From a virus: DNA of 64,000 bases. The DNA lies in IMG/VR virus record IMGVR_UViG_3300042191_000299, positions 1-64,000 of that record; one strand, given 5' to 3'. Numbering within the stretch: the first letter of the stretch is position 1; the number at the start of each line of letters is the position of its first letter. The notes under the pieces are model-generated. The model had not been told where the DNA came from. It was given only the letters and a program-made list of their open reading frames with translations, and did no database searches. Below, one piece after another: positions 785 through 51,965 of this stretch. The position numbers and the translations under genes are program-made.

Positions 785-875
785 GTCGCAGCTACGTGGC
801 CGCTGCGCAGGCTTTTCCGTCGAGCAAGATCCTCTGCCAGTCGCGCCAACAAAGCCGGCGCGCAGGCTCTAACCA
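785..875 (-). repeat. two adjacent solitary CRISPR-repeat-like units (785-821 and 840-875) separated by only 18 nt
   Basis: 785-821 matches the array-1 repeat at 29/37 positions. 840-870 is identical to the first 31 nt of array-1 unit 3996-4031. Same orientation as array 1. Lies between convergent genes. Confidence 0.75.
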
Positions 876-879
876 GCGA

Positions 880-1503
880 TCACGCTACCATGGCCGAGGC
901 GGCGCGGACACCGTCGAGGAACTTCGCCATCGGGAAGTGGGGTCCGGGGTCGGTGTGCTTGCTCAGCCCGAACGCTTCGGTGACGGCCGCGTGCGTGGTG
1001 ATGCCCCGCCCCTTTGCACGGAGCCCCGCTGCGTCCACGAACGAAATGGGCAGCATCCACCGACGGCAGATGCCGGCTGACAGCTGCGCAGCTCGCGACA
1101 GCACCGCCAGGCTGTAGGCGTCGTCCCACTCCTCGGGCGTCTGCCGTGCGCGGCCACACAACTCGATGCCGATGCCGTTGTGGTTGGCGCCCGGCGCGTG
1201 GAAGGCGATGTCCAGCTCGCGCACGGACTGAGTGATGGAATTGTTGTCGACGCAGTAGTGCCAGGATACTTTTCGCGGTTTCCCGTCGGCGCCAACCGGA
1301 CCTGCGTGGCACCGGCGCATGAGCGACTCTGCTGCCACCGACGACTCGCCAACCTCGGCGGTGTGCAACACGATCAGGTCAACGACGGTGCGGGGGCCTA
1401 GGCGGTACCACTTCGCAGGTAAAAATGGAATGTCCAGCACGCCTAACGATCGTAACTGCGGGGCAGGGGCAAGGTCAAACGGGTCTCTCGTCGGATCAAC
1501 CAA
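880..1503 (-). CDS. N-acetylmuramoyl-L-alanine amidase (amidase_2/PGRP-type endolysin)
   Basis: Motifs DLIVLHTAE, WHYCVD, GIELCG and KHTDPGPHFP are typical of zinc amidase_2. The listed start is TTG; GTG at 1440 is equally possible. Confidence 0.8.
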   Translation of the reverse strand: MVDPTRDPFDLAPAPQLRSLGVLDIPFLPAKWYRLGPRTVVDLIVLHTAEVGESSVAAESLMRRCHAGPVGADGKPRKVSWHYCVDNNSITQSVRELDIAFHAPGANHNGIGIELCGRARQTPEEWDDAYSLAVLSRAAQLSAGICRRWMLPISFVDAAGLRAKGRGITTHAAVTEAFGLSKHTDPGPHFPMAKFLDGVRAASAMVA

Positions 1504-1755
1504 GCCGATCCGCGGGCACTATCTACCAATGTGCCAGCCGGGGGTGTCTCGAACACCGACGGGAGCATCGAGATGGCCAGCAGCGCCGCCCGCAGAGCGC
1601 CTTCAGAATCCGTCGAGCGGCATTGTCTACGTCGACAGGGCGCGGCCCGTTGCTGTCCTTGTCCACCTCACGTTGGATGTAGATGAACGGCTTGCCATCC
1701 CGCTGGATGTTGCGGCTGCCGTACGGCGCAGTGAATCGACATGCTCGTTTTGCCC

Positions 1756-2289: not shown

Positions 2290-2631
2290 TCATTTCGTCA
2301 GTTTGTAGACGCCGATGCCCAGCCCCAACGTCGCCAGGGCCATGCCCAGGCCGAGCCAAATCTTCTCGGGAATGATACCCATCGCGGGCCCCTGCAGCGA
2401 CGGCGTCATCAGCCCTTCGCCCACCGCGCACTTGCGGGAGATGGCCGTGTGCACGGCGGCGATCTTCTTGTGCACCGCGCGCGCCAGCGACGGCTTGTTG
2501 GCGGTGGCCTGCGAATAGGCGTCGAGTCCGGCCCACGCCTGCACGATGGTCTGCTGGGCCACTTGGCAATTCCCGGCGGCCAGTGCCGCCTTCGCGTAGT
2601 TCACCGCGGCCAGGATCTCTGCTCGCGTCAC
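2290..2631 (-). CDS. hypothetical protein with C-terminal TM anchor (lysis-cassette candidate)
   Basis: GTG start overlaps the upstream stop (GTGA). C-terminal IWLGLGMALATLGLGIGVY. Confidence 0.5.
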   Translation of the reverse strand: MTRAEILAAVNYAKAALAAGNCQVAQQTIVQAWAGLDAYSQATANKPSLARAVHKKIAAVHTAISRKCAVGEGLMTPSLQGPAMGIIPEKIWLGLGMALATLGLGIGVYKLTK

Positions 2632-3095
2632 GCTTGGCTCCTGTAGTAGGCGATGCCCCCCACGACAGCTCCGGTGAGTACCAGCGCGCCGAGCCCGAAC
2701 CACAGCACCCTGCGCATCATGCGTGCGCGATCAGCCAGCAGCGTGTTCTGGCGCTGCACCGCCTCCAGCTCCTGTGGCGACAGCGCGCCCATGTGCACAG
2801 CCATCGGCCCGTCACGGCCGGTGCCACGCGGAGCCCCGACACCGCACGCGAGCATCGTCAGATCGTGCGTGTGGCCGTCACTCGGATCCGGCTGGACCTT
2901 GAAGTTTCGCACCACATGGTAGTGGCCGCTCGCCAGGTCAGTGTTCCCTGTGCCCTCTTTGTTCAACCACGCGCCGTGGTTGTGCACAGGATACATCCGC
3001 CCCGGATTCTGCGTCGTGAGCTGACACGGGAATCCGGGGGGCTGGACGGACGCGTACTTGACGGCGTCCGGATTGGGGTACTGCGTGTGGCGCAT
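2628..3095 (-). CDS. hypothetical protein, His-rich, C-terminal TM anchor
   Basis: Starts at MRHTQYP. Contains GHYHVV..DGHTHD. C-terminal VLWFGLGALVLTGAVVGGIAYY. Confidence 0.5.
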   Translation of the reverse strand: MRHTQYPNPDAVKYASVQPPGFPCQLTTQNPGRMYPVHNHGAWLNKEGTGNTDLASGHYHVVRNFKVQPDPSDGHTHDLTMLACGVGAPRGTGRDGPMAVHMGALSPQELEAVQRQNTLLADRARMMRRVLWFGLGALVLTGAVVGGIAYYRSQA

Positions 3096-3920: not shown

Positions 3921-4390
3921 GTCGCATCTTCTAAGCCGGTGCGCAGGCGCTGTGACTTTGTCCTTCGCGATAGCCCCGCCAAGCTCATGAATCACGTCGC
4001 GCCAACAAAGCCGGCGCGCAGGCTCTGTGACTCGACCACCGGAACCCTTCCGCGAGCGACGAGACGGTAGTCGCACCAACAAGGCCGATGCGCAGGCTTT
4101 TGAGACCGTAATCCCAGCCAGCAGCTCGTCGAGCGTCGGCGTGTCGCACCAACAAGGCCGATGCGCAGGCTTTTGAGACATGGTGCAACCATCATCCCGG
4201 CGTTGTGCTTGTGTCGCACCAACAAGGCCGATGCGCAGGCTTTTGAGACACAGACGCAGGAGTTCGACGCCTACTCGCAGGCGTCGCACCAACAAGGCCG
4301 ATGCGCAGGCTTTTGAGACTCTACTTTCTTCGCGACACCACCAACGACAGATGGTCGCACCAACAAGGCCGATGCGCAGGCTTTTGAGAC
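3921..4390 (-). CRISPR. CRISPR array 1: 7 units (5 identical 37-nt repeats plus 2 divergent 36-nt distal units), 6 spacers of 33-39 nt
   Basis: Repeat GTCGCACCAACAAGGCCGATGCGCAGGCTTTTGAGAC at 4070, 4143, 4213, 4283 and 4354. Divergent units at 3921 and 3996. Spacers at 3957-3995, 4032-4069, 4107-4142, 4180-4212, 4250-4282 and 4320-4353 are all unique. The degenerate end is distal to the effector gene. Confidence 0.93.
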
Positions 4391-4440
4391 CTACCCCATA
4401 AAAAGCCGCGTCTTATTCAGCTATTGAGTTGTCAATCGCG
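4391..4440 (-). promoter_or_regulatory. CRISPR leader (relatively AT-rich), homologous to the array-2 leader
   Basis: Minus strand reads ATTGACAACTCAATAGCTGAATAAGACGCGGCTTTTTATGGGGTAG. This is about 80% identical to 49527-49573 and lies in the same position relative to the first repeat. Confidence 0.65.
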
Positions 4441-4481
4441 CGAACCCCCCGAACGCCACCACCGTAGGCGGCGGCCAGCAC

Positions 4482-6170
4482 CTACGTTCGCGCGCCGTTC
4501 TTTGCACTCAGCGCCAGCAGATTGTTGCACGCGTTCAAATCTTGATCGCGTACACGCCCGCATGCAGCGCACGTGTGCATGAGCTGCGACTGATCCCATG
4601 TATCCTCACAGCCACATTCGTCGCAGCGCCGCGTGGTCATCGCCGGGTCGAGCTTGACGAATGTGCGCCCGAGCTTCCTGGCTGTGTCGATCAGGGCTAT
4701 CCGCAGTTCGTGCGGAGATCCCATCATCCGCCAGTATCGCTCGGCGTTCGGAACGGGTGCGTCTTCCGCCTTTGGCTTGGCCGCAAACTTGCGCAGGTCG
4801 AAGTCCTCCAGCACCAGCGTGTCGTACCGGGCAAGGAGCGTGCGCGCAAACATGCGGTAGAAATCCAGCCGGCGCGCGAGCGCCTTCTCACGCTGGTTGA
4901 TCGACCAGTCGCGGTAGTGCCAGAAACGCCGAACGCGCCACTCGTTGAGCGGCGAGAAGATCGCTTCGTCACCAGCGAACCGGTTGTCCTTCCACCACCA
5001 CACCGCTGATGACAGCCGTTTCGCGTTTCGCCACTGCGCCAGGTTCTCCAGACGCGCCGCGTGCTCGGGGGGCAGCGTGTTGGCCTTAGCCCAGGTGACC
5101 AGCTCGCCCCGCATCTTCTCGAACCAGTGGGTCTCCACACCTAACAACTGCGACGGGTAGTCCAGGGCGGACAGAAGCTCGTTGTCGAGTCGCACCTCCC
5201 CCTCGTTTCCCTTGTCGTCCTTCCAGTACGCCACGCGCAGGCCGCCGTTGCCCTTCTCGGCGACACGCCATCCGAGGTCGAGCGCCACACGGCCTTCGCC
5301 AGCAGCCACGGCTTGAGCAAACTCGCGGGACTCCACCGTGATGTGCAGTTCGTACGCCCAGGCGCGTCCGCGGCGCCAGCGGTACAGCCACGCCCACATG
5401 ATTTTCGCATCGTCCGGCAGCGGTCGATGGACGACAGCCGTGAACGTCACCCACAGCGGATCGCGTCCGACCGAACCGGCGCGGAGACTGCATTCAGCCA
5501 AATACTTGCCGCGCGACCGTCGCGTGCCGGGCAGCTCCCGCATACGAAAACGCCGGTCGCCCGCAAGCCGCGCCACGGTCATGCCCTTCTGGATCTGCAC
5601 AGCGATGCGCCCTTCGCCCGTGCGTGGCTTATGCCGAGGGTCCATCAGGGCCTTGCGCTGCTGCTCGGCTGCCTTCTCGCACACCAAATATGTGCCCCAG
5701 TACAGGTCCGACGCTGCGCGCTCTTCGATGATGCGCGCGTGGTGCCGCGCCTCAATTTCGTCCAGCCGTGCCTTGGTGGGGGGATCTGCTGCAGCTGCAG
5801 ATCGTTCCGCCTTCCAGGCTTTTCGCGCAACAGCGAGCTGCGCCTTGGCCTCTTTGATCGTCTGGCGCGTCTCGGCCGTCATCGTGCGCTTGCGTGCGGC
5901 TGCGTTGGCCTCGCGTGCTTGCTTGTATAGCGTCTCCACCGTCGCCTCTTCCCGGGCCACCCGCTGCCCTATCTCGATAACAGTAGGGGCCTCGTCGAGC
6001 ACGGCGCGAACGGCAGTGCGCCGCTCCAGCTCCAGCGTGACGAGCTTGGTGCGGTAGTCATCCGCCTTGCAATACTGATCGTCGGCGAGGGCTTGCCCTT
6101 CGGTGATGCCGCGGGGGTGGACACCGTAGACGTAGATGCGTGTAGGAACGGACGACGTTTTTCGCTTCAT
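4482..6170 (-). CDS. cas12: miniature type V CRISPR effector (TnpB/Cas12-like RuvC nuclease), 562 aa
   Basis: ATG 6170 overlaps the upstream stop (ATGA); the longer 605-aa listing adds a Pro/Arg-rich N-terminus. RuvC-I VALDLG (D298), RuvC-II LVLEDF (E455), zinc ribbon CDECGC..HTCAACG, RuvC-III RDQDLNACNN (D544). N-terminal strand IYVYGV plus a long helical insert. The array begins 91 nt downstream. Confidence 0.85.
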   Translation of the reverse strand: MKRKTSSVPTRIYVYGVHPRGITEGQALADDQYCKADDYRTKLVTLELERRTAVRAVLDEAPTVIEIGQRVAREEATVETLYKQAREANAAARKRTMTAETRQTIKEAKAQLAVARKAWKAERSAAAADPPTKARLDEIEARHHARIIEERAASDLYWGTYLVCEKAAEQQRKALMDPRHKPRTGEGRIAVQIQKGMTVARLAGDRRFRMRELPGTRRSRGKYLAECSLRAGSVGRDPLWVTFTAVVHRPLPDDAKIMWAWLYRWRRGRAWAYELHITVESREFAQAVAAGEGRVALDLGWRVAEKGNGGLRVAYWKDDKGNEGEVRLDNELLSALDYPSQLLGVETHWFEKMRGELVTWAKANTLPPEHAARLENLAQWRNAKRLSSAVWWWKDNRFAGDEAIFSPLNEWRVRRFWHYRDWSINQREKALARRLDFYRMFARTLLARYDTLVLEDFDLRKFAAKPKAEDAPVPNAERYWRMMGSPHELRIALIDTARKLGRTFVKLDPAMTTRRCDECGCEDTWDQSQLMHTCAACGRVRDQDLNACNNLLALSAKNGART

Positions 6171-6406
6171 TTGAGTACCTCGGTTAGAAGGGTCCGGAGC
6201 GCGTCCAGGCGCGCGGTTGGAAACTCCGTGACGCACTCGTTGCGTGAGATTTCGTGGTCTGTGCTGCACAGCCGTCGCAGCGACCGGAAGATGCGGCACG
6301 CGGCGACCTTCACTTGGTCACGCGTGCCGTGGCGCAGATCGTCCATGTCACCAGCGATCAACTCCTCGCGCACGCCGAGCTGGTCGAGCAGCTGCGCGAG
6401 CGTCAC
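6167..6406 (-). CDS. small helical protein, paralogue 3 of 3 (C-terminal LLTEVLK)
   Basis: 79 aa. ATGA overlaps at both ends. Shares its C-terminal motif with the two upstream ORFs. Confidence 0.6.
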   Translation of the reverse strand: MTLAQLLDQLGVREELIAGDMDDLRHGTRDQVKVAACRIFRSLRRLCSTDHEISRNECVTEFPTARLDALRTLLTEVLK

Positions 6407-27091: not shown

Positions 27092-27128
27092 ATCGCACCA
27101 ACGAAGCCGGTGCGCAGGCGCGATTCAC
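27092..27128 (-). repeat. solitary CRISPR repeat unit (sense to local transcription)
   Basis: Minus strand reads GTGAATCGCGCCTGCGCACCGGCTTCGTTGGTGCGAT. 27 consecutive nt are identical to the array-2 repeat. It fills the gap between the HerA-like stop (inside the unit) and the next start. Confidence 0.8.
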
Positions 27129-28882
27129 TGTTCAAGAAACACCTCGGATAGGTTGAGCGTCTCGCCGTCATCGCCGATCAGCTCCAGGTCACGCAACGAT
27201 TTGATCGTGCGTCCAAACGACGAGCTGGTCTGGCTATAGCCCGTCATTGCCGACAATTTCTCGCGTGACAGTGCATTCGCACCATGGATAGCGTTGTCGT
27301 AGATCGCCGATAGCATCCCAGCTTCCTGCGGCTGCAGTGTGCACATCCAATGGTCCAGCAGCGCACGCCCCGTGGGCAACGGCGCGGTCGTGCCGGCCAG
27401 CTCTCGGCCAGCGGTGGTGATCGTGTAGCGCGCCGGCGTCCCTTCGATGAGCCCGTCTTGCGCGAGCCGCGCGATGTTGCGGGGGAAGGCGCTCGACGAG
27501 CGGCGATAGCCGGACAACGTCGAGATTTGTGAAGCGCTGGCGGACCCCCGCTGCGCCACCACCGCCAGCAGCTCCCGCGCATATTGGGGGAGGGTGCCTT
27601 CGACTTCGGGCCGTCGCGCAGGCGCCGAATTCGCCTTTGCCAACATGCCGTTCATGTTGGGGGTGTTGCGTATCTTGCCAGGATCAAAGACGCCGTTGTG
27701 CTGGTTCAGCGGTACGGGCTGCGGCGCCGTTCGTCGGACCGCGGTCAGCAGCTCGTTCAGCTGCACGGACAGCTTCTGCTGCGTCGGCGCCAGGCGATCC
27801 GCCCAGCTCTCGATCACTTTGACCATCGCGGCGCTGAACGCGTTTTCGCTCTTGGCCAGCGACTCCACGATCTTCTCAATGCGCGCCAGCTCGGCCGGCT
27901 TCACCGCCGCCACTTCCTTCGCCGGCGCCGCAACGGCCGCGGGCTTCTTCGTCAACTCGCGCTCCAGCTCGGCGACGCGCGCACGTAGTGTTTTGGGGTC
28001 GCTGGCCTTGGCCTCCTCGATGGTGGCTGCCATCGCCGTGCGCACCTCGTCGAGATCAATTGGCGCCAGCTTGTGGCTTTGCGTGTCGGATCCATCGGGC
28101 GTCGCCGACGCGTCGAACGTTCGCTTCTTGCGGAACACCGTCCGCACGGCGCCCGACTCTTCCCATGCGATCATCGTTCCCTTGGGCAAATCGGGCAACA
28201 GCTTAATCATGTCGTCCGATGCACCGTTGGCATTCGCCCATCCGTCGATGCGCTTGATGTCCTCTGGCGCCTTGAGCTTGCCTGTGAAGATTTTGTCCGA
28301 AAGGTTGAGCGCCCCCTTGTTCACCTCCGCCGCACGCTGTGAAACGATGGTCCCACCGATGCCGTAGTTGCGGCCGATCTTCCACAGGCGCTTCGTCGCC
28401 CCTGCCATCGGCGCCTGGGCCGCGTCGACGAACTGCGGAAAGAATTCGTGGCCTTCCTCGAAGACCATGTGCAATGGCGATTTGTTGCGCTTCTTGAGAT
28501 TGAAAACCTCGCGGCACAGATCGGTGGCGAAACGGCGCTGCTCACCCTCGGTGAAGTCGCTGATATCGAGCACGCACGACATTCGATGGTTCACGATGAG
28601 CGACGCGACCAGCGCACCGCCTGTTGGCTCAAGCGGCACGTCGCCATGCAGGCCTCCAAACACAGGAACGTCGTAGCCCTTCGACTTGCCGTTGGTCGAC
28701 AGGCGCAGTCCGTACCAGGACCCGACGGGATCCACGACCACCACCTGCACGCCTGCATCGAGAAACTCTTCGACCAGCACGCCGGCGGCGTAGCTTTTCC
28801 CTGTGCCGCGCGTGCCCAGGAAGGCGTACGTGGACGTCGCGGCGTTCTTCGGCAGCGTGACGTCGTGCGACAAGCGGTACAT
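27125..28882 (-). CDS. HerA/FtsK-like (DUF87-type) P-loop ATPase with two C-terminal winged-helix repeats
   Basis: Walker A FLGTRGTGKSY, Walker B-like HMVFEEGHEF. C-terminal repeats ...ISTLSGYRRSSSAFPRNIARL and LSAMTGYSQTSSSFGRTIKSL. Confidence 0.7.
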   Translation of the reverse strand: MYRLSHDVTLPKNAATSTYAFLGTRGTGKSYAAGVLVEEFLDAGVQVVVVDPVGSWYGLRLSTNGKSKGYDVPVFGGLHGDVPLEPTGGALVASLIVNHRMSCVLDISDFTEGEQRRFATDLCREVFNLKKRNKSPLHMVFEEGHEFFPQFVDAAQAPMAGATKRLWKIGRNYGIGGTIVSQRAAEVNKGALNLSDKIFTGKLKAPEDIKRIDGWANANGASDDMIKLLPDLPKGTMIAWEESGAVRTVFRKKRTFDASATPDGSDTQSHKLAPIDLDEVRTAMAATIEEAKASDPKTLRARVAELERELTKKPAAVAAPAKEVAAVKPAELARIEKIVESLAKSENAFSAAMVKVIESWADRLAPTQQKLSVQLNELLTAVRRTAPQPVPLNQHNGVFDPGKIRNTPNMNGMLAKANSAPARRPEVEGTLPQYARELLAVVAQRGSASASQISTLSGYRRSSSAFPRNIARLAQDGLIEGTPARYTITTAGRELAGTTAPLPTGRALLDHWMCTLQPQEAGMLSAIYDNAIHGANALSREKLSAMTGYSQTSSSFGRTIKSLRDLELIGDDGETLNLSEVFLEQ

Positions 28883-28920: not shown

Positions 28921-30141
28921 TCAACTGGTGGGCTTCATGCCAGGAAACTGGCGATGGAATTCCGCGTGCGTTTGTTCGAGCCACGTGCCAGTCATCTGCG
29001 CGGCCACCTCGGGGGGAACCGGCGGGCCCCCCTCGTCGGGCTTTCGCCACGACCAATCGTCTGGTGGCGGGGGCGCGGCGATCGGAATCGGCACGGCGCC
29101 CGAGTCCTCCACAGGCGGCACCAACGTCAGCGCCAGCCCGGACAACTCGCGATCACGCTGCGCACGCGCCTCCTCCGGGGATGGCCAGTGCGCCGGCGGC
29201 GCGGCGATCGGTGGTGAGGCTTGCACCACGTTGCTCGGCGCCACCCCTTCCGGTACATCCACCACGCCGTAGTGGGCCAGCACGGCGGCGAAGCCTGCCG
29301 GATCTGCCGCACGTGAGATCACCACGTGGTCCACGCGCCGCTCGGCCAGGCGCTGCCGAAACGCGTTCACGTCCGCGGTGACCGAGCCCTGCAGTGGCAC
29401 GAGGGCGTCGGAAAGTGGGCTTGGTACCGTCAGCGCCACCACCGACATGGCCTTGCTGGTGGTGCGCGCCGGTACGTTGTGGTCGGGGGGCAACGCCCCG
29501 AAGAGTAGCGCCTCAGGGGGCATGCGCCCAATGTCGCGGTGGCCCCACGCGTCCTCGAACGCGGCCGCCAGCACCTCAAGCTGCTCGGTGGTCAGCTCCA
29601 GGCACGTGCACTCGATGCACGGATCTTGGTGTGACGGAACGTCCTTCGCGGGAACGTGCAGCGTCCAGCGATCGGTGGGCACCCAGTCGAACCGCGCGGG
29701 GATGGGCGTTGCCGTCTTGGTCGCTGCATCCAGGCGCACGCTCGCGTACGCCAGCAGGCGCGGCACGAACTTGTTGGGCGATGGCGGCACGATGGCGTGG
29801 CAGCGGAGCCGGCCGACCTGCTTTGCGTCCAGCAGTAGCACCCGCCGCACAGGCCGGACACGGGCCTCGTAGGATTCGGAGATCCAGCGCCAGTAGGCCC
29901 GCACGGAGGTCAGCTCGGCGACGTTGGCGATGGTGGTGGGCTGGGCGGCGCGCCCTTTGCTGATCGAGCGGGCTGCGGTGCGGGCGTAGAGCGCAGCAGT
30001 CGCCGGGGACACGCCACGGGCCATCAACGACGCGATGAACCCCTTGGCGTTCAGGTACTGCGTGGTGCTGGTGGCGACCGTGACCACGGCATCGCCGATT
30101 CGGTACTGCACGGCTGCGTCTGATTTTGGCCTGCGTCCCAT
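28921..30141 (-). CDS. hypothetical protein, Pro-rich C-terminus
   Basis: 406-aa ATG ORF. The N-terminus faintly resembles an integrase SAM-like domain, but no catalytic R..HxxR..Y was seen. Confidence 0.55.
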   Translation of the reverse strand: MGRRPKSDAAVQYRIGDAVVTVATSTTQYLNAKGFIASLMARGVSPATAALYARTAARSISKGRAAQPTTIANVAELTSVRAYWRWISESYEARVRPVRRVLLLDAKQVGRLRCHAIVPPSPNKFVPRLLAYASVRLDAATKTATPIPARFDWVPTDRWTLHVPAKDVPSHQDPCIECTCLELTTEQLEVLAAAFEDAWGHRDIGRMPPEALLFGALPPDHNVPARTTSKAMSVVALTVPSPLSDALVPLQGSVTADVNAFRQRLAERRVDHVVISRAADPAGFAAVLAHYGVVDVPEGVAPSNVVQASPPIAAPPAHWPSPEEARAQRDRELSGLALTLVPPVEDSGAVPIPIAAPPPPDDWSWRKPDEGGPPVPPEVAAQMTGTWLEQTHAEFHRQFPGMKPTS

Positions 30142-30152
30142 GAGGGAAACGC

Positions 30153-30200
30153 TATGTCAGTTATGTGTATAGATCAATATATAATATATAAGCTGATCCC
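30153..30200. other. sharply AT-rich tract (DNA-unwinding-element-like)
   Basis: tatgtcagttatgtgtatagatcaatatataatatataagctgatc sits in an otherwise GC-rich genome. Confidence 0.6.
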
Positions 30201-30203
30201 ATA

Positions 30204-30302
30204 CCGTGCGCGCGCGCGATTCAACTATCACATTTTTTAGGTCGGTTTTTACCCTAAACATTGACCTAAAAAATGTGATAGTTGAATCGCGCGCGCGCAC
30301 GG
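30204..30302. repeat. perfect 40-bp inverted repeat with a 19-nt non-palindromic spacer
   Basis: 30204-30243 (ccgtgcgcgcgcgcgattcaactatcacattttttaggtc) is the exact reverse complement of 30263-30302. Confidence 0.95.
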
Positions 30303-30372
30303 GAGAGTCAGCCCGCAAAATTCAAGTGCGCACCGTAGCCGACGGGTTGAGGTAGTCCCCCACCAGCGCCCC

Positions 30373-30401
30373 TTGACACGCGCCGCGCGTTGCCGCATCA
30401 T
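30373..30401 (+). promoter_or_regulatory. candidate sigma70-like promoter giving a near-leaderless HTH mRNA
   Basis: TTGACA-N17-CATCAT, ending 6 nt before ATG 30408. Confidence 0.4.
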
Positions 30402-30407
30402 TTCGCC

Positions 30408-30656
30408 ATGTCGCCCGCCGAAAACGCGCCCAATCCAATCGGGGCGGAGATCCGCCGGCTGCGTGACTCGCTCGGGATGACCCTGCAGGATTTCGGGCGC
30501 CACGTGGAGATCCCGTGGCAGACGATCCAGGCGTATGAAGGCGGTCGCGCGGTGCCGCCGGCGACGCGGCTGCTGCTGATCATGCACGCCACCCGGCGCG
30601 CGAAGGAACCGTTCCGCGTGGCGCCGGTAGCTCGCGCTGTGGCGTTGGCGGCTTAG
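30408..30656 (+). CDS. XRE/Cro-CI family helix-turn-helix regulator
   Basis: IGAEIRRLRDSLGMTLQDFGRHVEIPWQTIQAYEGG. The listed TTG at 30390 is an alternative start. Confidence 0.8.
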   Translation: MSPAENAPNPIGAEIRRLRDSLGMTLQDFGRHVEIPWQTIQAYEGGRAVPPATRLLLIMHATRRAKEPFRVAPVARAVALAA

Positions 30657-30685
30657 AGCCTGCGCACCGGCTTTGTTGGTGCGAC
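30650..30685 (+). repeat. solitary CRISPR repeat unit (sense to local transcription)
   Basis: AGAGCCTGCGCACCGGCTTTGTTGGTGCGAC matches the array-2 repeat at 30/31 positions. The HTH stop codon TAG lies at unit positions 5-7. Confidence 0.8.
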
Positions 30686-31046
30686 GACATCCAGATCTCG
30701 TGATTGACCGCCACCCACGCAATCGTGTACGGTGCGCGCCCCTGCCGTAGGTCGCGGGTGGCGGCGGCGGGGCTCGACAGAACACCGTAGGGCCGGCAGG
30801 GTTTTACTTCGACCGGCAGCACGTGCTAGTGATCTAGCAAATGGGCCAAGCATCGAGACGGAAGCGCATGCTACCGGCGGCATACCGGCCACTCGGGCGG
30901 GTGGCGCCGCAATCCACAAATAGTCCACAGGCGTTGCAGAGTGTACCGGCGTGCCCTCGCTGCCCATTCGCCGAGGCTCACGTGCACTACCTGACGCTGC
31001 AGCGGCCCGACGGTAGCGCTTTTTATCCACAGCCATCGTAAACGAC

Positions 31047-31313
31047 ATGGCCTCGCACACGCGTCTTCATTGTGTTCTGTGTGGAGTGGACCGTGCGCCG
31101 CGGTTCTTCGGCATTTCGGCTGAGGGCGCGTACGACCCCGCGCACGTCAATGAGCTGGGCTCGCGCACCTACCACTTCGGCGGCGCGTCGAACATCAAAG
31201 TCGACAAGGGCCCCGCGCCGATGAACATGGCCTACGGGATGCGAGCGGCGCTCAAGGCAGCACTGGCGCGCGTGGAGGCGGACATCGTGGAGGCCGGAGG
31301 CGAGCTGGATTGA
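31047..31313 (+). CDS. hypothetical small protein
   Basis: 88 aa. Contains CVLCG. ATG start. Confidence 0.5.
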   Translation: MASHTRLHCVLCGVDRAPRFFGISAEGAYDPAHVNELGSRTYHFGGASNIKVDKGPAPMNMAYGMRAALKAALARVEADIVEAGGELD

Positions 31314-31606
31314 AGCGGCGCGCCGGCGGCATGCGGTTTTCCGCGCGGCTCCAGGAGGGCGAACGGATCTGGGTGCTGACCCCTGCCGACGCTCACGGCG
31401 TCGTCGTGTCGGCGCGGACGATGCGACGTGGCGACCGCCACATTCGCTGGAAAGAAGTTCCGCCACGCGCGCAGATCGTTAAAACGGGCAGATATAGTCC
31501 ACGCGTGGGCACTGTAAACCGGCGCGATGAAGGGGAAACATGGGTTCGTACCAATGGTCCAACAGCGGTGGCCGCGTTCCGCGCCATGCACGCGTTGCTG
31601 CGGTGA
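31310..31606 (+). CDS. hypothetical protein, paralogue of the next ORF
   Basis: 98 aa. Shares the pattern W..V......DEG.(T)W(V)R....(AVAA)(F/L)RA with 31606-31836. Confidence 0.5.
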   Translation: MKRRAGGMRFSARLQEGERIWVLTPADAHGVVVSARTMRRGDRHIRWKEVPPRAQIVKTGRYSPRVGTVNRRDEGETWVRTNGPTAVAAFRAMHALLR

Positions 31607-31836
31607 TGCTGTCCGTGGGCACACCGATCACGGTGGTGGTCGGGCGGGGCGTGCTGATTCAGGCGTTCGTGGACAAGGTCGATTCCGTGCAGTTTCGCTG
31701 GAATGAGGTTGGCGCGTTGAGCAGAAGCGCGCTGCTTACCGCCGACGACGAGGGCACACTGTGGGTGCGCGGCTGGTGGAACTACGACTCCGACGCGGTG
31801 GCCGCACTGCGTGCCGCTGCGGCGCTCATGGCCTAG
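31606..31836 (+). CDS. hypothetical protein, paralogue of the previous ORF
   Basis: ATG in a TGATG overlap. 76 aa. Confidence 0.5.
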   Translation: MLSVGTPITVVVGRGVLIQAFVDKVDSVQFRWNEVGALSRSALLTADDEGTLWVRGWWNYDSDAVAALRAAAALMA

Positions 31837-39292: not shown

Positions 39293-39960
<668 letters not shown>

Positions 39961-44788: not shown

Positions 44789-44970
44789 AGCCTCTCGTCA
44801 AAAAGCTCGAACGCGCGCTGGCCAAGCTGCCGGGCACGGAGGGCCGCAAGATCGCCCGCCGCAATGCCCGGCAGCGCGTTCTGGCTGCACTCCGTGCCGT
44901 GCGGGCACACGTGGACCGTGAATTCCCTGCGATCGTGGCGCGTAAGGGGGGGCACACATCGTACGGTTGA
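44785..44970 (+). CDS. hypothetical small basic protein
   Basis: 61 aa. GTGA overlap with the VWA gene stop. Confidence 0.45.
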   Translation: MKPLVKKLERALAKLPGTEGRKIARRNARQRVLAALRAVRAHVDREFPAIVARKGGHTSYG

Positions 44971-45199
44971 CCAGCGCCTAGCACACCTCAGGCGCAAGGG
45001 GTGGGTCCAAAAAGACGCCCTCTTTGCGGCGCGCTACGCTGCGGTAGGTGTGCCCATTCGTAATATCGGGGGCGACCTGTTCGTGCCTGGTTGGGCCCAC
45101 GCGATCGGCTACAACAAACAGACCGAGCTGCGCGCCGCCAAGCGCTCTGTGAAGGCGCGCAAGGCAGCGCTCGCGACGGCAGCCCTTTTGCAGACGTAA
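44918..45199 (+). CDS. hypothetical protein (start uncertain)
   Basis: Frame of the listed ORF 44864-45199. The first plausible start is GTG 44918, overlapping the previous ORF. Its stop lies inside the solitary repeat. Confidence 0.4.
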   Translation: MNSLRSWRVRGGTHRTVDQRLAHLRRKGWVQKDALFAARYAAVGVPIRNIGGDLFVPGWAHAIGYNKQTELRAAKRSVKARKAALATAALLQT

Positions 45200-45229
45200 G
45201 AGCCTGCGCGCCGGCTTCGAAGGCGCGAC
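45194..45229 (+). repeat. solitary CRISPR repeat unit (sense to local transcription)
   Basis: GAGCCTGCGCGCCGGCTTCGAAGGCGCGAC. Paired A>G / T>C changes keep the hairpin CGCGCC/GGCGCG. The stop codon TAA lies at unit positions 4-6. Confidence 0.75.
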
Positions 45230-47203: not shown

Positions 47204-48078
47204 GGCCCCGGTCGGACCGGCGCGTTGCGCAGCTCATGCACCAGCGTGACTGCTGGGCGCGCATCAGCGATCGTGAACCCGCGCCCAGCCAGCGTCGCCT
47301 CGTACACGCCCGTGTGCAGCTCCGCAAAGCCGTCGTTGAAATCCATCGGCTCGCCATCGATCGCCATGACACGCGTCGGCTCCCCGTGCAGTGACAACCG
47401 CCAATTCACGTTGGCGTGTTTGAGCGCCAGGAAGCCGCGCGCCTGGTTGTCCCCCCGCTCGTACATGCGGTGCTCCTCACATGGCCCGAAGAGCCACAGC
47501 AGCAGGTCGAACATGTGAACGCCAATGTTCGTGATGAGCCCACCGGAGCGTTCGACGTTGCCCTTCCAGCTGTGGGCGTACCAGCGGCCGCGGGGGGTAA
47601 CGTAGTCGAGCGTGACCCGGTGGGGGCCAGGCTGGGCGCCGAGGTACTTCTTGAGCGCGCCGATGCGGGACAGGAGGCGACACTGCAGGACGGTGTAGAC
47701 GCGCTTACCATACAGTTGCTCGTCCTCTTCTAGCGCGTCGAGGTTCCACGGCGCGAGCGTGAGCGGCTTTTCGCAGATGACGTTGGCGCCGGCCCGCAGC
47801 CCCATCTGGGCGTGCACGTCGTGCAGATGGTTGGGGGAGCATACAGTCAGCCAGTCAATGCCCTGGCCGGCGCGGCGCAGGCGGTGGAGATACCGGTCGA
47901 AGCGCTCGGGCTCCGTGAAGAAGTCAGTCTCGCGGTTGTAGCGGTCCAAGATCCCTGCGGCATCGTGCGGATCGAGTGCTGCCACAAGCGTGCCACCAAC
48001 GGCGCGGATCGCTTCGAGGTGGCGAGGGGCGACGAAGCCAGCACAGCCAGTCATGGCGAAGCGAGGAGGCGCAGTCAC
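47200..48078 (-). CDS. Gfo/Idh/MocA-family sugar-nucleotide oxidoreductase (WbpB-like)
   Basis: N-terminal RFAMTGCAGFVAPRHLEAI, then EKPL and a characteristic C-terminal domain. GTG 48078 is preferred; ATG 48054 is the alternative. Confidence 0.75.
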   Translation of the reverse strand: MTAPPRFAMTGCAGFVAPRHLEAIRAVGGTLVAALDPHDAAGILDRYNRETDFFTEPERFDRYLHRLRRAGQGIDWLTVCSPNHLHDVHAQMGLRAGANVICEKPLTLAPWNLDALEEDEQLYGKRVYTVLQCRLLSRIGALKKYLGAQPGPHRVTLDYVTPRGRWYAHSWKGNVERSGGLITNIGVHMFDLLLWLFGPCEEHRMYERGDNQARGFLALKHANVNWRLSLHGEPTRVMAIDGEPMDFNDGFAELHTGVYEATLAGRGFTIADARPAVTLVHELRNAPVRPGP

Positions 48079-48100
48079 ATCATCCACGATACTTGACGGC

Positions 48101-48118
48101 GTGCCAGTTATCCAGCAG
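48101..48118. promoter_or_regulatory. 18-bp quasi-palindromic motif, copy 4 (GTGCCAGTTATCCAGCAG)
   Basis: Lies between the divergent sugar genes and ends 1 nt before ATG 48120. Confidence 0.55.
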
Positions 48119-48119
48119 C

Positions 48120-49397
48120 ATGCGGAGCGTGTCGGATCCACTGTTTGTCGAGCTGAGGGAGAAGATCACGCTGCGCACCGCGCGCGTCGTAGTAGTGGGC
48201 GGAGGATACGTGGGACGGCCGCTGGCTGATGCGTGCGTGGGCGCCGGTTTCCACACGACCGTCTACGATACAAACGAATCTAAGTGCGCGGAGCTGCGCG
48301 CGGTGAACCATCGCGCCGTGACCGTCTCCGCCGTTCTCCGCAGCGCTGATGTGGTGGTGATCTGCGTCCCCACGCCGCTCAACAAGACGAAGGACCCCGA
48401 CAATACGCACGTGCTGGCGGTGGCCGAAGAGCTGCTGGATAACGCGCACGCACCTCGCCTGGTGATTCTTGAAAGCACAACGTTTCCTGGCTTCACACGC
48501 CAGGTGTTTGCCCCGAAGCTGCATCTGTCTATTGCCAACCGTGACTTCGTCGCCTTCTCGCCAGAGCGCACCGACCCCGGCAACGCCGAATACAATATCA
48601 GCAACACGCCGAAGATTGTGGCAGGTGCGGACGAGGAAAGCGCTGGGCTGGCGACGGCGTTCTACGAAGCATTCGTGGAACGCAAAAACGTCGTCCAGGT
48701 CAGCTCCACTGACACAGCCGAGATGGTCAAGCTGCTGGAGAACACTTTCCGCGCCGTGAACATTGGCCTCGTCAACGAGGTGGCGATCATGTGTCGGCAC
48801 CTCAATCTCGACGTGTGGGAGGTGATCGAGGCGGCCGCCACCAAGCCGTACGGATTCATGCCATTCTACCCGGGGCCCGGCATCGGGGGGCACTGCATTC
48901 CCGTGGACCCCCTCTACCTGTCATGGCAACTGAAGACGCTGCAGTACGATGCGCGCTTCATCCAGCTTGCCGACCAGATCAACTCGGCAATGCCGGCGCT
49001 GGTGGTGGACCGCGTGACCGAGGCTCTCAATGGTTTGGGCTTGGCGGTGCGCGATGCGAATATTCTTCTGCTCGGCGTGGCCTACAAACCGGGTGTGGGT
49101 GACGTGCGAGAGTCACCCGCGTTGGAGATTTTGGCCTGTTTTGAGAAACGCGGCGCTGCGGTAGTGTATTTTGATCGGTATGTTGAAAGTGTCACCACGA
49201 AGCGGTATGCGGTACTACCGTCGTGTCGGCGTCTGGACAGCGCCCTGTACGCAGCATGTGCCTGCGCGGTCATCGTCACGGACCACCCCGACGTGGATTA
49301 TGAGGAGATCGTGCGCAGCGTGCCGGTGACGGTGGACTGCCGGAACGCGACGAAGGCATTTCGCGCGAAGTACCCCGGGAAGGTGGTGATGCTTTGA
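48120..49397 (+). CDS. UDP-sugar 6-dehydrogenase family (WbpA/WecC-like nucleotide-sugar dehydrogenase)
   Basis: Rossmann VVVVGGGYVGRPLA, catalytic GGHCIPVDP. 425 aa from ATG 48120. Confidence 0.8.
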   Translation: MRSVSDPLFVELREKITLRTARVVVVGGGYVGRPLADACVGAGFHTTVYDTNESKCAELRAVNHRAVTVSAVLRSADVVVICVPTPLNKTKDPDNTHVLAVAEELLDNAHAPRLVILESTTFPGFTRQVFAPKLHLSIANRDFVAFSPERTDPGNAEYNISNTPKIVAGADEESAGLATAFYEAFVERKNVVQVSSTDTAEMVKLLENTFRAVNIGLVNEVAIMCRHLNLDVWEVIEAAATKPYGFMPFYPGPGIGGHCIPVDPLYLSWQLKTLQYDARFIQLADQINSAMPALVVDRVTEALNGLGLAVRDANILLLGVAYKPGVGDVRESPALEILACFEKRGAAVVYFDRYVESVTTKRYAVLPSCRRLDSALYAACACAVIVTDHPDVDYEEIVRSVPVTVDCRNATKAFRAKYPGKVVML

Positions 49398-49523
49398 TGT
49401 GCCCGCGAGCGCCGCGGTGGTGAGCCGATCTCGGGAGGCGCTCGATCACAGCAGTTTCGCGTGCTTGCACTTCGGTTGCCGTACATTCTTGGCTGGCATG
49501 AGCGCGTGAAACAGCCACCGCTC

Positions 49524-49573
49524 GAAACTGACAATCAAATAGCCGAACAAGACACGGCTTTTTCTAGTGAGCC
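49524..49573 (+). promoter_or_regulatory. CRISPR leader 2, homologous to the array-1 leader
   Basis: ACTGACAATCAAATAGCCGAACAAGACACGGCTTTTTCTAGTGAGCC aligns with the minus strand of 4391-4436. Confidence 0.65.
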
Positions 49574-49756
49574 GTCGCAGAGCCTGCGCACCGGCTTCGT
49601 TGGTGCGACCTCCAGAAGGAGGTCCTGTGTGCGGCGGTACCACCGGTCGCAGAGCCTGCGCACCGGCTTCGTTGGTGCGACCCAGGAACGACGACCAAAC
49701 GCGACTTCACGATCCGAAGGTCTCCAGAGCCTGCACACCTTGACCTCGTGCCAGTT
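49574..49756 (+). CRISPR. CRISPR mini-array 2: two identical 36-nt repeats plus one degenerate terminal unit, 2 spacers (36 and 38 nt)
   Basis: GTCGCAGAGCCTGCGCACCGGCTTCGTTGGTGCGAC at 49574 and 49646. Degenerate unit at about 49720. Spacers at 49610-49645 and 49682-49719. Orientation is opposite to array 1 on the map. Confidence 0.85.
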
Positions 49757-49765
49757 ATCCAGCAA
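49748..49765. promoter_or_regulatory. 18-bp quasi-palindromic motif, copy 5 (GTGCCAGTTATCCAGCAA)
   Basis: Overlaps the decayed end of array 2. Lies 17 nt upstream of ATG 49782. Confidence 0.55.
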
Positions 49766-49781
49766 CATCCCCGGACTGCGA

Positions 49782-51965
49782 ATGAACCTCGTCGTTCTGG
49801 ATTCCACGGCCATCGCCGGCGTCACCAAGGGGCCGGGCAGCCCCGCCTACTTCTCGCGATACCTCATCGAGCATCTGCGGCGGCAGGGCCACACGATCAC
49901 GATCTATGGCACGTTCAACGAACAGGCGTGCGCGGCAGCCGATGCGGTGTGGGCCGAGTGGTGCAACGAGCTGGCCTACGCTGCGGCAGCGAGCAATGTG
50001 TGCAAGAGGCTCATCATCCGCATGCGCGGCTACGACGTGTGGGGGCCACTGGAGCGGCTGAACTGGGCGGCGGTGGACCACCTTGTGTTCGAGAGCAATT
50101 TCATCAAAGAGCTTGTTGAGGAGCAGAGCAGCGACATCGGCGTGCAGACGCATGTGATCCCGAGCGGTGTGGACCTGGCGAACATTCCGTTTCGTGTGCG
50201 TCACCAGTCGAATGGCGCAAGTGCGACTGGAAGAGGCGGCTACCGCGACCATCCACCCGTCGTCGCTTTGGTTGCACGCGCCGTGGCAGACAAGGGATTC
50301 CAACTCGCGTTAGAATGGGCGCGCCAGACAGACATTAAGCTGCATGTGGCGGCGGCGCTTGGCGAAGCGAATCCGCGACTGATGCGCTACCTGCAGCGCG
50401 CGGCGCCCCGCAACGTGACCATCCATGACACGGTCGACACCATTCCGTGGTTGGAGTCGATCCACGCGAACTTTCTGTTGTCTGCGTCGACGTGGGAGAC
50501 GCTCGGCTACACGATCGCCGAGGCGATGGCGATGGGGATCAAACCGCTGATCCACGACGTCCCTGGTGCAGCGATGAATTGGCCGTTGTGGCTGCTGTGG
50601 CGAGACTTTGATCAGCTGAACAGCCTCATCAATGGTACGTACGATTCGCGGAGCTATCGAACCTTTGTCGCCGAGCACCTCGACGCCGCCAAGGGCTCTG
50701 CGGCATTCCAGGCGCTGCTCGAAGCGCCGAGCACCGACATGGTGAACGTCGTCGAAGTGTCCGAGCTGGCCAAGCTGGTGGTGCCGACCGAACCAGCACG
50801 GCTGGTGTTCCTGGCACCGTTGCGCGGGGGACCGGCCATTCGCGCCATTCGTCAGTACCTTGGCCACATGGGCGCGCTACGATTCTCCGCCACGGAGGGC
50901 AGGACGTTCGTCGACTTCACGCCCGGTCCAGAGCGGCGGCTACTCGCGCTCGACACGATCGTGCGGGACGACGTGGCCGGACTGCGGCGCATGCTGTTCA
51001 GTGTGCTGCCCCACGTCGACGAGATCGTGATTGGAATCGACATGCGCTCAGAGGCGGGAGATGCGCTATGGGATCTCGCAAAAGCCTACGCTGATAGGGT
51101 GCACACGTTCAACGGCGCAGACATCGACATGACCGAGGAGGCGTGGGCGGCAAACAAGATCGATTTCTCCGCTGCACGCAACCGCGGCCGCGCGCTGGTC
51201 CAGTCGCCGTGGACGCTGGTACTTGACAGTGACGAGTATCTTCGCGAGACCGTGGATCTACGCGAGCTTGTCAGCAAGGCTGGTCCGGAAGAAGGCGCCT
51301 TCAGCGTGCTGGTGGCGATCACAGACAATGGCACACCGGTGTTTGAGCAGCGCGACTTCCAACGACTCGCGCGGAGCCAATACCGCTGGACGCAGGCGGC
51401 GCACAACCAGCTGCAGTGCGCGCTGAATACGCCGCCCGCGCACATCGCCACTGTGATCGTATCCGACACCAGCTTGCGCGGCGAGGACATGGTAGAGCGA
51501 CGAAACGCACAGCGGGATCAGGGCATTGTGGATCTGGTTGCCGCCGCCGGCAAAGGGCACCTGGACGCGTTGTTTCACGTGGCGAAGCACACGGCGGCTG
51601 CCGGAGACCTGGCGAAAGCTGTGACCCTGTGCGAGGAATTCCGCGCGCGCGTTGTCCCCAACACGCGCAGAGTCGCGCAGCGACAATGGGTGGCGCTGGC
51701 ATTGGGGTTCCGTTTCGGACGAGAGGGCAACTTTGCCGAGGCAGGCCGCTGGGCATGTCGCGCGCTGCTGGATGGCGCCAGCGTGCCCGCATTTTGTCTG
51801 CTGGGCGACGCCGCGGAAGCGGAGGGCGACTTAGCTCGGGCTGTGCACTGGTATCAAGCGGCATGCGCCGTCGATTTGGATGATCGCCTGGGGTGGCCGC
51901 ACATCACGGACGCACGACACGCGCGCCTGGCTGGCCTACAAGCGGCACTCCGTGCGCAGGCGTGA
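49782..51965 (+). CDS. multidomain glycosyltransferase (GT4-like N-terminal half, GT2-like DxD domain, TPR-like C-terminus)
   Basis: ETLGYTIAEAMAMGIKPLIHD (GT1/GT4 motif). IVIGIDMRS...LVLDSDEYL (GT2). The listed longer ORF runs through the CRISPR array and is rejected upstream of ATG 49782. Confidence 0.75.
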   Translation: MNLVVLDSTAIAGVTKGPGSPAYFSRYLIEHLRRQGHTITIYGTFNEQACAAADAVWAEWCNELAYAAAASNVCKRLIIRMRGYDVWGPLERLNWAAVDHLVFESNFIKELVEEQSSDIGVQTHVIPSGVDLANIPFRVRHQSNGASATGRGGYRDHPPVVALVARAVADKGFQLALEWARQTDIKLHVAAALGEANPRLMRYLQRAAPRNVTIHDTVDTIPWLESIHANFLLSASTWETLGYTIAEAMAMGIKPLIHDVPGAAMNWPLWLLWRDFDQLNSLINGTYDSRSYRTFVAEHLDAAKGSAAFQALLEAPSTDMVNVVEVSELAKLVVPTEPARLVFLAPLRGGPAIRAIRQYLGHMGALRFSATEGRTFVDFTPGPERRLLALDTIVRDDVAGLRRMLFSVLPHVDEIVIGIDMRSEAGDALWDLAKAYADRVHTFNGADIDMTEEAWAANKIDFSAARNRGRALVQSPWTLVLDSDEYLRETVDLRELVSKAGPEEGAFSVLVAITDNGTPVFEQRDFQRLARSQYRWTQAAHNQLQCALNTPPAHIATVIVSDTSLRGEDMVERRNAQRDQGIVDLVAAAGKGHLDALFHVAKHTAAAGDLAKAVTLCEEFRARVVPNTRRVAQRQWVALALGFRFGREGNFAEAGRWACRALLDGASVPAFCLLGDAAEAEGDLARAVHWYQAACAVDLDDRLGWPHITDARHARLAGLQAALRAQA

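Follow-up and report, generated by a model that had tools for sequence, protein, structure and literature searches.

A solitary type V-M repeat unit at the stop codon of a regulator gene in a phage encoding its own Cas12m

Orphan CRISPR (clusters of regularly interspaced short palindromic repeats) repeats are known in two settings, as host-mimicking decoys of phages and as self-regulatory guides located beside cas genes. Here we describe a third arrangement, in which a phage owning the DNA-binding effector Cas12m scatters intact handles behind its own genes, at their 3′ ends. The analysis focuses on a solitary 36-nucleotide (nt) repeat unit, at positions 30650-30685, that overlaps the stop codon of a helix-turn-helix (HTH) regulator gene in the first 64,000 nt of the IMG/VR virus record IMGVR_UViG_3300042191_000299 (hereafter the window, 64 kb of a 94.5-kb phage genome). 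If such handles make guides, phages would silence host or rival sequences by fixed, gene-coupled guides; if they act on RNA, a CRISPR effector would have been recruited for phage mRNA processing. Either outcome would broaden the roles presumed for type V-M systems, in a simple and testable setting. In the literature searched, we came across no account of orphan scaffolds dispersed in phages that carry Cas12m.

Cas12m proteins, including those with a D-E-D RuvC triad, bind DNA flanked by a protospacer-adjacent motif (PAM) without cutting it and silence transcription (PMC11013384; PMC10442227), one structural paper leaving open that D-E-D clades may cut (PMC10442227). In the Cas12m2 complex (Omura 2023, PMC10442227), the repeat-derived part of the CRISPR RNA (crRNA) is 36 nt long and its 5′ tail (-36 to -30) is disordered, while the remainder folds into a G(-23).A(-2) pair, a 6-bp helix (-22..-17 / -8..-3) and a further stem stacked coaxially on this helix; C(-1) is read base-specifically by His269/Arg270, and the guide pairs with DNA over 17 bp only. 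PmCas12m alone cuts its precursor after repeat nt 2-3 and guide nt 17-18, in the same way with or without a 3′ extension, which yields a crRNA of ~33+17 nt (bioRxiv 10.64898/2026.03.26.714355). A lone repeat within a longer transcript is thus a sufficient substrate for this enzyme.

The unit at 30650 shares with the type V-M scaffolds of Cas12m2 (PMC10442227), GoCas12m and PmCas12m a 36-nt handle ending in A-C, a 6-bp helix with G.A closure, a putative pseudoknot with upstream bases, a dispensable 5′ tail and a cognate Cas12m gene in the same genome, but it lies outside any array, 24 kb from cas12m, in the 3′ end of a coding transcript, and its loop counts 9 nt instead of 8. By its architecture it would work most like the regulatory crRNA-like RNAs derived from orphan repeats (CreA, tracr-L, scaRNA, Cas12a-adjacent repeat-like sequences and crlRNAs), which also combine an orphan repeat with a fixed spacer-like part, and it could likewise steer an effector to repress rather than destroy (bioRxiv 10.1101/2023.03.03.530964, Shmakov 2023; 10.1101/2024.12.27.630466). 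Those RNAs, however, are encoded within cas loci or next to them, and promoters to which they are partly complementary can be recognised as their targets, whereas this unit is far from cas12m and no target was found for it. Viral solitary repeat units and RNA anti-CRISPRs (Racrs) are also single phage repeats that keep the effector-binding hairpin (Faure 2019; Camara-Wilpert 2023, PMC10651486), but Racrs mimic host repeats, usually have their own promoter and belong to elements without cognate cas genes, whereas for this unit no host repeat to mimic is known, a promoter of its own is lacking and the cognate cas gene is present. Finally, the type V-M system of myxophage MV-1 (bioRxiv 10.64898/2026.09.14.751636) has in common a phage Cas12m of ~600 amino acids (aa) with a D-E-D RuvC triad, an adjacent array, a lack of adaptation genes and spacers for which no targets were found; in its passages on Cas12m, the preprint reports one array and no dispersed orphan units. 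It also presents the MV-1 protein as the first Cas12m in a phage, while we found Cas12m relatives encoded on 66 IMG/VR viral contigs, so that type V-M systems of phages or proviruses are commoner than this implies.

The repeat unit and its fit to the Cas12m scaffold

The unit was compared with the repeat of array 2 (GTCGCAGAGCCTGCGCACCGGCTTCGTTGGTGCGAC; 49574-49609 and 49646-49681, +), one of two CRISPR arrays of the window (Table 1). Over unit nt 6-36 the two are identical at 30/31 bases, the single mismatch (T/C) falling in the loop, and further mismatches occur at unit nt 2, 4 and 5, within the 5′ tail of 7 nt, a part that is disordered in Cas12m2. Allowing up to 3 mismatches, a search of the window with the 31-mer returns 10 matches, where 100 shuffles give an expectation of 0.00; the resemblance is therefore not due to chance. 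The HTH gene's TAG (30654-30656) corresponds to unit nt 5-7, as ORF (open reading frame) 30390-30656 confirms, and gene and unit both lie on the + strand, the unit being sense to the gene. The first-pass annotation, made from the sequence, was thus right about the match to array 2, the position of the stop codon and the orientation, and the mostly non-coding stretch of ~360 nt that it placed downstream proved to be 361 nt devoid of a convincing ORF. No second degenerate repeat was detected in these 361 nt (best match 14/28, under the typical best of a random 361-nt stretch), and the nearest other unit is 3.5 kb away; consequently, the unit does not form a CRISPR array, which takes at least two repeats.

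The unit folds as a hairpin of -17.8 kcal/mol (z -3.3) and maps onto the Cas12m2 scaffold with one extra loop base: CGCACC pairs with GGTGCG in the helix, G13 faces A35 and the last base is C36. Every structured position is the same as in some array repeat variant. To quantify pairing, 14 distinct unit variants were aligned from the arrays, the orphan sites and a distantly related metagenomic element, the closing pair being counted as G-C(-1) in this analysis (the G.A reading follows Omura 2023). Stem cells were paired in 99% of cases and 4/7 pairs had changed on both sides; none of 500 shuffles reached any of these stem measures, and pairing fell to 14-51% when the partner was slid by 1-3 columns. 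The only broken stem pair belongs to the terminal, decaying repeat of array 1. At the 3′ end (...GCGAC), A(-2) is invariant and C(-1) is present in 13/14 variants. Such compensatory changes across variants indicate that orphan copies are under selection for the hairpin, while for the 30650 copy, which has no private changes, intactness alone could also mean youth.

Upstream of the helix, GCC (30658-30660) is complementary to the GGC that opens the loop, and we propose this pairing as the counterpart of the further Cas12m2 stem. It is invariant within the window and hence gives no covariation signal; other loci show CCC/GGG, GGC/GCC and GCT/AGC at this place, a support that is partly circular since the scanner required upstream/loop pairing.

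The effector expected to read this scaffold is encoded by ORF 4482-6299. Almost the entire protein aligns with PDB 23vw_A ("CRISPR-associated DNA-binding protein Cas12m"; E 8.6e-66), and it matches Cas12m2 (8hio) at 1e-22. Its RuvC triad is D-E-D (D341, E498, D587, invariant), and H291/R292, invariant in the protein family, align with the scaffold-reading H269/R270 of Cas12m2. No adaptation genes were found beside cas12m. By sequence and predicted structure, the unit passes as a Cas12m scaffold, and the view that it is a genuine crRNA handle, copied from the Cas12m system of the same genome, is supported.

Placement behind the HTH gene and other phage genes

The longest ORF of the HTH gene (30390-30656, +) opens with a TTG at 30390. 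Its product is recognised by Pfam HTH_31 (5e-8) and by phage repressor/regulator PHROGs (~5e-5), and its small HTH domain and divergent control region are those of a putative Cro/CI-like (XRE-family) regulator. The sole promoter-like site on the + strand in 30100-31700 is the one preceding this gene, and it may give a leaderless HTH mRNA. In the same interval and strand no terminator-like site was detected, and no promoter or leader belonging to the unit itself was found. HTH transcripts should therefore carry the unit and a fixed stretch of 17-24 nt. The first-pass annotation had proposed that every HTH mRNA reading through would carry a handle followed by a fixed guide; an intact handle and the absence of a terminator-like site in between agree with the first half of this proposal, and the second half is left without the target that a guide implies.

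A loose sequence scan combined with a structure-based scan of the window recovered further units, for a total of five orphan sites, the 30650 site included. All five lie on the locally transcribed (sense) strand, and each of them (5/5) has, 1-12 nt before its core, a stop codon that ends a coding-like frame of 60 codons or more, a criterion (frame of at least 60 codons ending within 20 nt upstream of the core) that applies to 4.1% of random window sites. Selection on the hairpin is visible among them: the 45194 unit carries a compensatory A-U to G-C change in its stem, and the 1490 unit has two stem pairs altered on both sides. Behind the 27092 unit, the 17 nt that follow include the GGAG and ATG of the next gene, whose ATG is 18 nt past the unit, and the mini-array at 785-875 begins 4 nt after the TGA of the amidase gene.

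Both arrays are preceded by a leader motif, AAGAC[GA]CGGCTTTTT (4400-4445, -; 49520-49573, +), composed of a small hairpin and a T-run. It is absent from every orphan unit, and the orphan units appear to depend on transcription of the upstream gene. These upstream genes are unrelated in function: one codes for the HTH regulator, one for a HerA-like ATPase and one for an amidase, and two are unknown. In other loci, the genes that precede orphan units showed no HTH theme. From this sequence context, the general rule is an orphan handle at a gene's 3′ end and not a handle tied to an immunity gene. The physical link between an immunity or regulatory gene and the CRISPR machinery, claimed by the first-pass annotation, thus holds insofar as a unit does sit on the HTH stop codon, but the same placement recurs after four unrelated genes, and an "immunity" function of the HTH protein is a family-level guess.

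At 60-80% identity, 25 homologues of the HTH protein were found, and ten loci, eight of them distinct, were fetched for six of these. Where the flanks suffice, the gene order is a divergent gene of ~300-430 aa, the HTH gene, small ORFs, the 88-aa gene and a gene of ~700 aa. In the nine loci aligned, nucleotide similarity to the window ends at the 3′ end of the HTH gene. Homologues whose 3′ end was read finish at the same ...AA* position without the unit, which consequently begins exactly where the ORF ends. Different small ORFs occupy the interval between the HTH and 88-aa genes in each relative, and this variable slot seems here to be filled by the unit and 361 nt of apparently non-coding DNA. 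These 361 nt have no nucleotide match in the nine loci compared, and the sole ORF between unit and 88-aa gene (30841-31041, 66 codons) has a GC content at third codon positions (GC3) of 0.66 against 0.80-0.84 in the neighbouring genes, with no homologue in the relatives and no PHROG hit. A hidden gene was rejected, this ORF and the antisense ORFs being non-coding-like by GC3 and without family hits. A special structure after the guide was rejected as well: the CCGCCACCC/GGGTGGCGG stem does not exceed shuffles in stability (z 0.56), and folding of the 411-nt region gave z 0.63. Rfam and tRNA scans returned no hits.

The repeat pattern is absent from IMG/VR and from one genome per species for 185,579 species, and was found in one other metagenomic contig only, which encodes a 34%-identical Cas12m and an array. 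A structural scan covered 1.49 Mb, most of it from loci bearing Cas12m and the rest from the window and other fetched loci, and produced 429 hits vs 2 in shuffles. Orphan scaffolds away from arrays were found in seven Cas12m-carrying viral contigs (L015, L027, L033, L039, L054, L060 and L064), and in several contigs solitary scaffolds lie kilobases from the arrays. The contig L015, with a Cas12m 49% identical to that of the window, has three orphan scaffolds whose stems are different and internally complementary, 2/3 of them directly after a TGA.

Two solitary scaffolds lie directly upstream of cas12m (L027 9931-9958, 42 nt; L060 6509-6536, ~60 nt), which suggests that Cas12m may act on the leader of its own mRNA or on its own promoter. 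In some Cas12m-carrying viral contigs (L015 11813-12218, L024 2769-4047) there are "arrays" of strongly diverged units with compensatory stem changes and a spacing of ~50-190 nt, which look like long-fixed sets of guides and not like arrays still acquiring spacers.

Table 1. Features of the window around the solitary unit, at the other orphan sites and at the type V-M locus.
Feature	Position	Strand	Remarks
Solitary repeat unit, 36 nt	30650-30685	+	reads GGCTTAGAGCCTGCGCACCGGCTTTGTTGGTGCGAC
Degenerate 5′ tail of the 30650 unit	30650-30657	+	contains last sense codon and TAG of the HTH gene
Conserved scaffold core of the 30650 unit	30658-30685	+	
Fixed guide-like sequence	30686-30709	+	GACATCCAGATCTCGTGATTGACC; directly 3′ of the 30650 unit
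XRE-type HTH regulator gene	30408-30656	+	ATG 30408; stop TAG 30654-30656
Promoter-like site TTGACA-17-CATCAT	30373-30401	+	directly 5′ of the HTH ATG; consensus match only
Stretch of 361 nt without convincing ORF	30686-31046	+	between the 30650 unit and the 88-aa gene
Conserved 88-aa gene	31047-31313		next conserved ORF after the 30650 unit
Orphan unit	45194-45229	+	TAA of ORF 44864-45199 = unit nt 4-6
Orphan unit	27092-27127	-	TGA of HerA-like ATPase gene (27125-28882) = unit nt 1-3
Orphan unit	1490-1525	-	TAG = unit nt 1-3; upstream of amidase gene
Two-unit mini-array	785-875	-	unit 840-875, 22-nt spacer, diverged unit 785-821
cas12m, type V-M effector	4482-6299	-	605 codons; likely start M44 at 6170
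CRISPR array 1	3921-4390	-	directly downstream of cas12m; five 37-nt repeats (4070-4390) and two degenerating units (3996-4031, 3921-3956)
CRISPR array 2	49574-49739	+	two 36-nt repeats (49574-49609, 49646-49681); truncated third unit from 49720
406-aa gene	28921-30141	-	no family hit

A fixed guide and its alternatives

Taken together, these features make it probable that the HTH transcript contains a Cas12m-binding element. The mechanism that we propose builds on this element. Transcription from the HTH promoter would pass the stop codon into the unit, as the sequence suggests, and the core of 28-29 nt would fold into the scaffold with its G.A pair, 6-bp helix, terminal C(-1) and GCC/GGC pseudoknot, to be bound by the phage's Cas12m, a step modelled on the solved Cas12m structures and on covariation. 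If the enzyme behaves as PmCas12m does, it would trim a few nt into the unit and ~17-18 nt after it, releasing a crRNA of ~50 nt with the guide GACAUCCAGAUCUCGUG. By analogy with Cas12m2 and PmCas12m, the functional guide would be the first 17-18 nt after the unit, and the stretch to be matched by PAM-flanked DNA would be GACATCCAGATCTCGTG. The complex may then bind such DNA in the host or in a competing element, and the bound DNA would be silenced, or cut if the D-E-D RuvC variant is active. Expression of the guide would thereby be coupled to the regulator's promoter, and at least five such modules, that at 30650 among them, would draw their transcription from the 3′ ends of phage genes. For the whole chain, from excision of scaffold and guide by Cas12m out of the HTH transcript to the existence of a real DNA target, we estimate a probability of about 0.45.

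Several results weigh against this chain, beginning with the target. The target searches, which left out the host genome and ~30 kb of the phage outside the window, gave no match beyond chance in the window, the relatives or public sets; a search of the complete viral and host genomes with the 20-30 nt downstream of the unit was one of the checks put forward by the first-pass annotation. Within the window there is no second copy of the first 12-24 nt after the unit (up to 3 mismatches, plus seed searches) and no self-target of the guide at up to 2 mismatches over 16 nt or 4 over 20 nt. In the window and seven other loci, the best 17-nt matches of orphan guides equal those of random 17-mers from the same locus, and the nine HTH-homologue loci contain only chance-level matches to the guide, with 4 mismatches. 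IMG/VR has no exact 18-mer of the guide, and a search of 50,697 INPHARED phage records with all guides and spacers concatenated gave only E>=0.6. In 596 Gb of genomes (1.2e12 positions), an exact 20-mer of the guide was hit once where ~1 hit is expected. Moreover, the "guide" of the 27092 unit shares nucleotides with the ribosome-binding site and ATG of the gene that follows, which is awkward for a sequence that also has to match an external target; no unit follows the HTH homologue in any of the nine fetched loci, the closest (77-80% protein identity) included; and the 30650 unit, without variation of its own, may simply be recent.

The single 20-mer hit lies at L013 5482-5501, in an intergenic region of a Ca. 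Poriferisodalis metagenome-assembled genome (GC 0.66) next to a PemK/MazF-like gene, with the flank cgTTCC and without extension of the match; a hit of this kind would arise about once by chance and is given no weight here. A 19-mer hit of the mini-array spacer in a low-GC IMG/VR contig was likewise rejected as chance-level. Guides of two other loci show short resemblances. In the one other contig that carries the repeat, a two-unit mini-array (L002 1802-1899, -) lies ~330 nt downstream of an excisionase-like HTH gene and its second guide reads CAGATC at positions 7-12, as in the 30650 guide; the guide of the mini-array unit at 840 has GATC at positions 9-12. These resemblances are a post hoc observation of borderline significance.

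An alternative that dispenses with a target is that Cas12m binds the handle within a polycistronic mRNA, and that the cut or the bound protein matters rather than the guide. Units placed directly behind stop codons would then punctuate operons: cistrons could be uncoupled or stabilised, the ribosome-binding site that comes next could be masked, or the upstream mRNA could become a non-stop message, provided that the cut falls ahead of the stop codon. Hairpins between cistrons serve as RNase III sites in the early mRNA of phage T7, where they are cut by a host enzyme; this is an analogy for such an RNA-level role, with no sequence relation and no guide involved. We know of no precedent for Cas12m acting on mRNAs, which counts against this alternative. 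Effector-catalysed processing on both sides of scaffold plus guide is compatible with it, as are the lack of a DNA target for any orphan guide in the window, the nine HTH-homologue loci and seven other loci, the translation signals of the next gene within 17 nt of the 27092 unit, and the L027 unit 42 nt ahead of cas12m. All five orphan sites also occupy the extreme 5′ end of the intercistronic gap and abut the stop codon, but since short intergenic gaps force any element near a stop codon, this placement does not separate an RNA-level role from a guide. At 30650 itself, the 361 gene-free nt that follow leave no adjacent cistron to be regulated. Altogether we regard this alternative, the main rival of the guide reading, as somewhat unlikely, even if an RNA-level role (processing or decoy) fits the data about as well as a guide role does.

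One variant would combine both outcomes. A PmCas12m-like cut after unit nt 2-3 (30651/30652) precedes the TAG and would leave the HTH mRNA without a stop codon; the same cut would remove the stop at 45194 and fall on the stop codon itself at 27092 and 1490. Ribosome rescue and degradation of the non-stop HTH message would be expected, while the guide would be harvested. On this view the stop codon sits in the dispensable 5′ tail because that is where Cas12m cuts, and the orphan handles at stop codons would make up a post-transcriptional regulon, run by Cas12m, that spans the phage genome. We consider this variant improbable.

The handles could also be neutral or selfish relics, that is, repeat copies scattered by recombination or aberrant array events, the 30650 copy being recent and functionless. 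This would account for the nine HTH-homologue loci lacking the unit, for its location in a variable slot whose small ORFs differ per relative, and for its lack of private substitutions that could reveal selection. It accords poorly with the other orphan units, in which compensatory stem changes are not those expected of decay, with divergence confined to the dispensable 5′ tail, with a strongly non-random strand and stop-codon placement, and with the recurrence of orphan units bearing different stems in a phage whose Cas12m is 49% identical. We therefore hold a relic to be unlikely.

A decoy comparable to a Racr is highly improbable. Here the handle would titrate the Cas12m of a host or rival, or brake the phage's own, through non-productive complexes. 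Solitary phage repeats are the defining form of Racrs, of which the type V-A examples inhibit Cas12a (PMC10651486), and a guide without a target in the searches made would suit this role. However, as the repeat is absent from one genome for each of 185,579 species and from IMG/VR and occurs in one other metagenomic element, there is no known host system that it could mimic; the phage itself encodes both the cognate effector and the arrays, and the unit has no promoter directly upstream and overlaps the end of the HTH coding sequence. Finally, a DNA-level hairpin acting as a recombination or replication signal unrelated to RNA is barely credible, for the conserved features are those that Cas12m reads in RNA (G.A pair, C(-1) and the proposed pseudoknot with an upstream GCC), even though unit orientation also tracks a GC-skew switch near 30 kb, so that strand bias alone cannot separate transcription from replication.

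Surroundings of the unit and spacers of the arrays

The window is phage DNA, encoding a family A DNA polymerase, Dda-like and SNF2-like helicases, a primase, a thymidylate synthase and an amidase endolysin, and its gene directions diverge from an AT-rich region near 30.2 kb. In this divergent region, between the 406-aa gene and the HTH gene, lies a near-perfect palindrome (30204-30302) with 48-nt arms that are 94% complementary and 3 nt apart; from its sequence, it could be an operator or an origin. Logan contigs of the same phage are 100% identical and fall nearly entirely inside the window (348 nt extend past its end), and one of them, of 25.9 kb (including L014), ends by coordinate arithmetic at ~30,233, within the left arm of the palindrome.

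Spacer 2 of array 1 matches the phage itself at 18/20 positions (2507-2526, +), inside the gene at 2290-2703 (-), with a mismatch at guide position 9. The same spacer has six exact 18-mer hits in IMG/VR, one of which extends to 22 nt (L090 4628). All these hits encode or resemble the peptide DAYSQA, so that a coincidence of codon bias is possible, and a PAM inferred from this spacer was rejected, the flanks of the six 18-mer hits being inconsistent. Array 2 is surrounded (47976-51965) by a UDP-glucose dehydrogenase-like gene and a gene for a 727-aa protein with two glycosyltransferase domains, with no cas gene among these neighbours. Elsewhere in the window, a tandem array of GGC-rich 9-nt units counts 33 copies over 300 nt (39358-39659).

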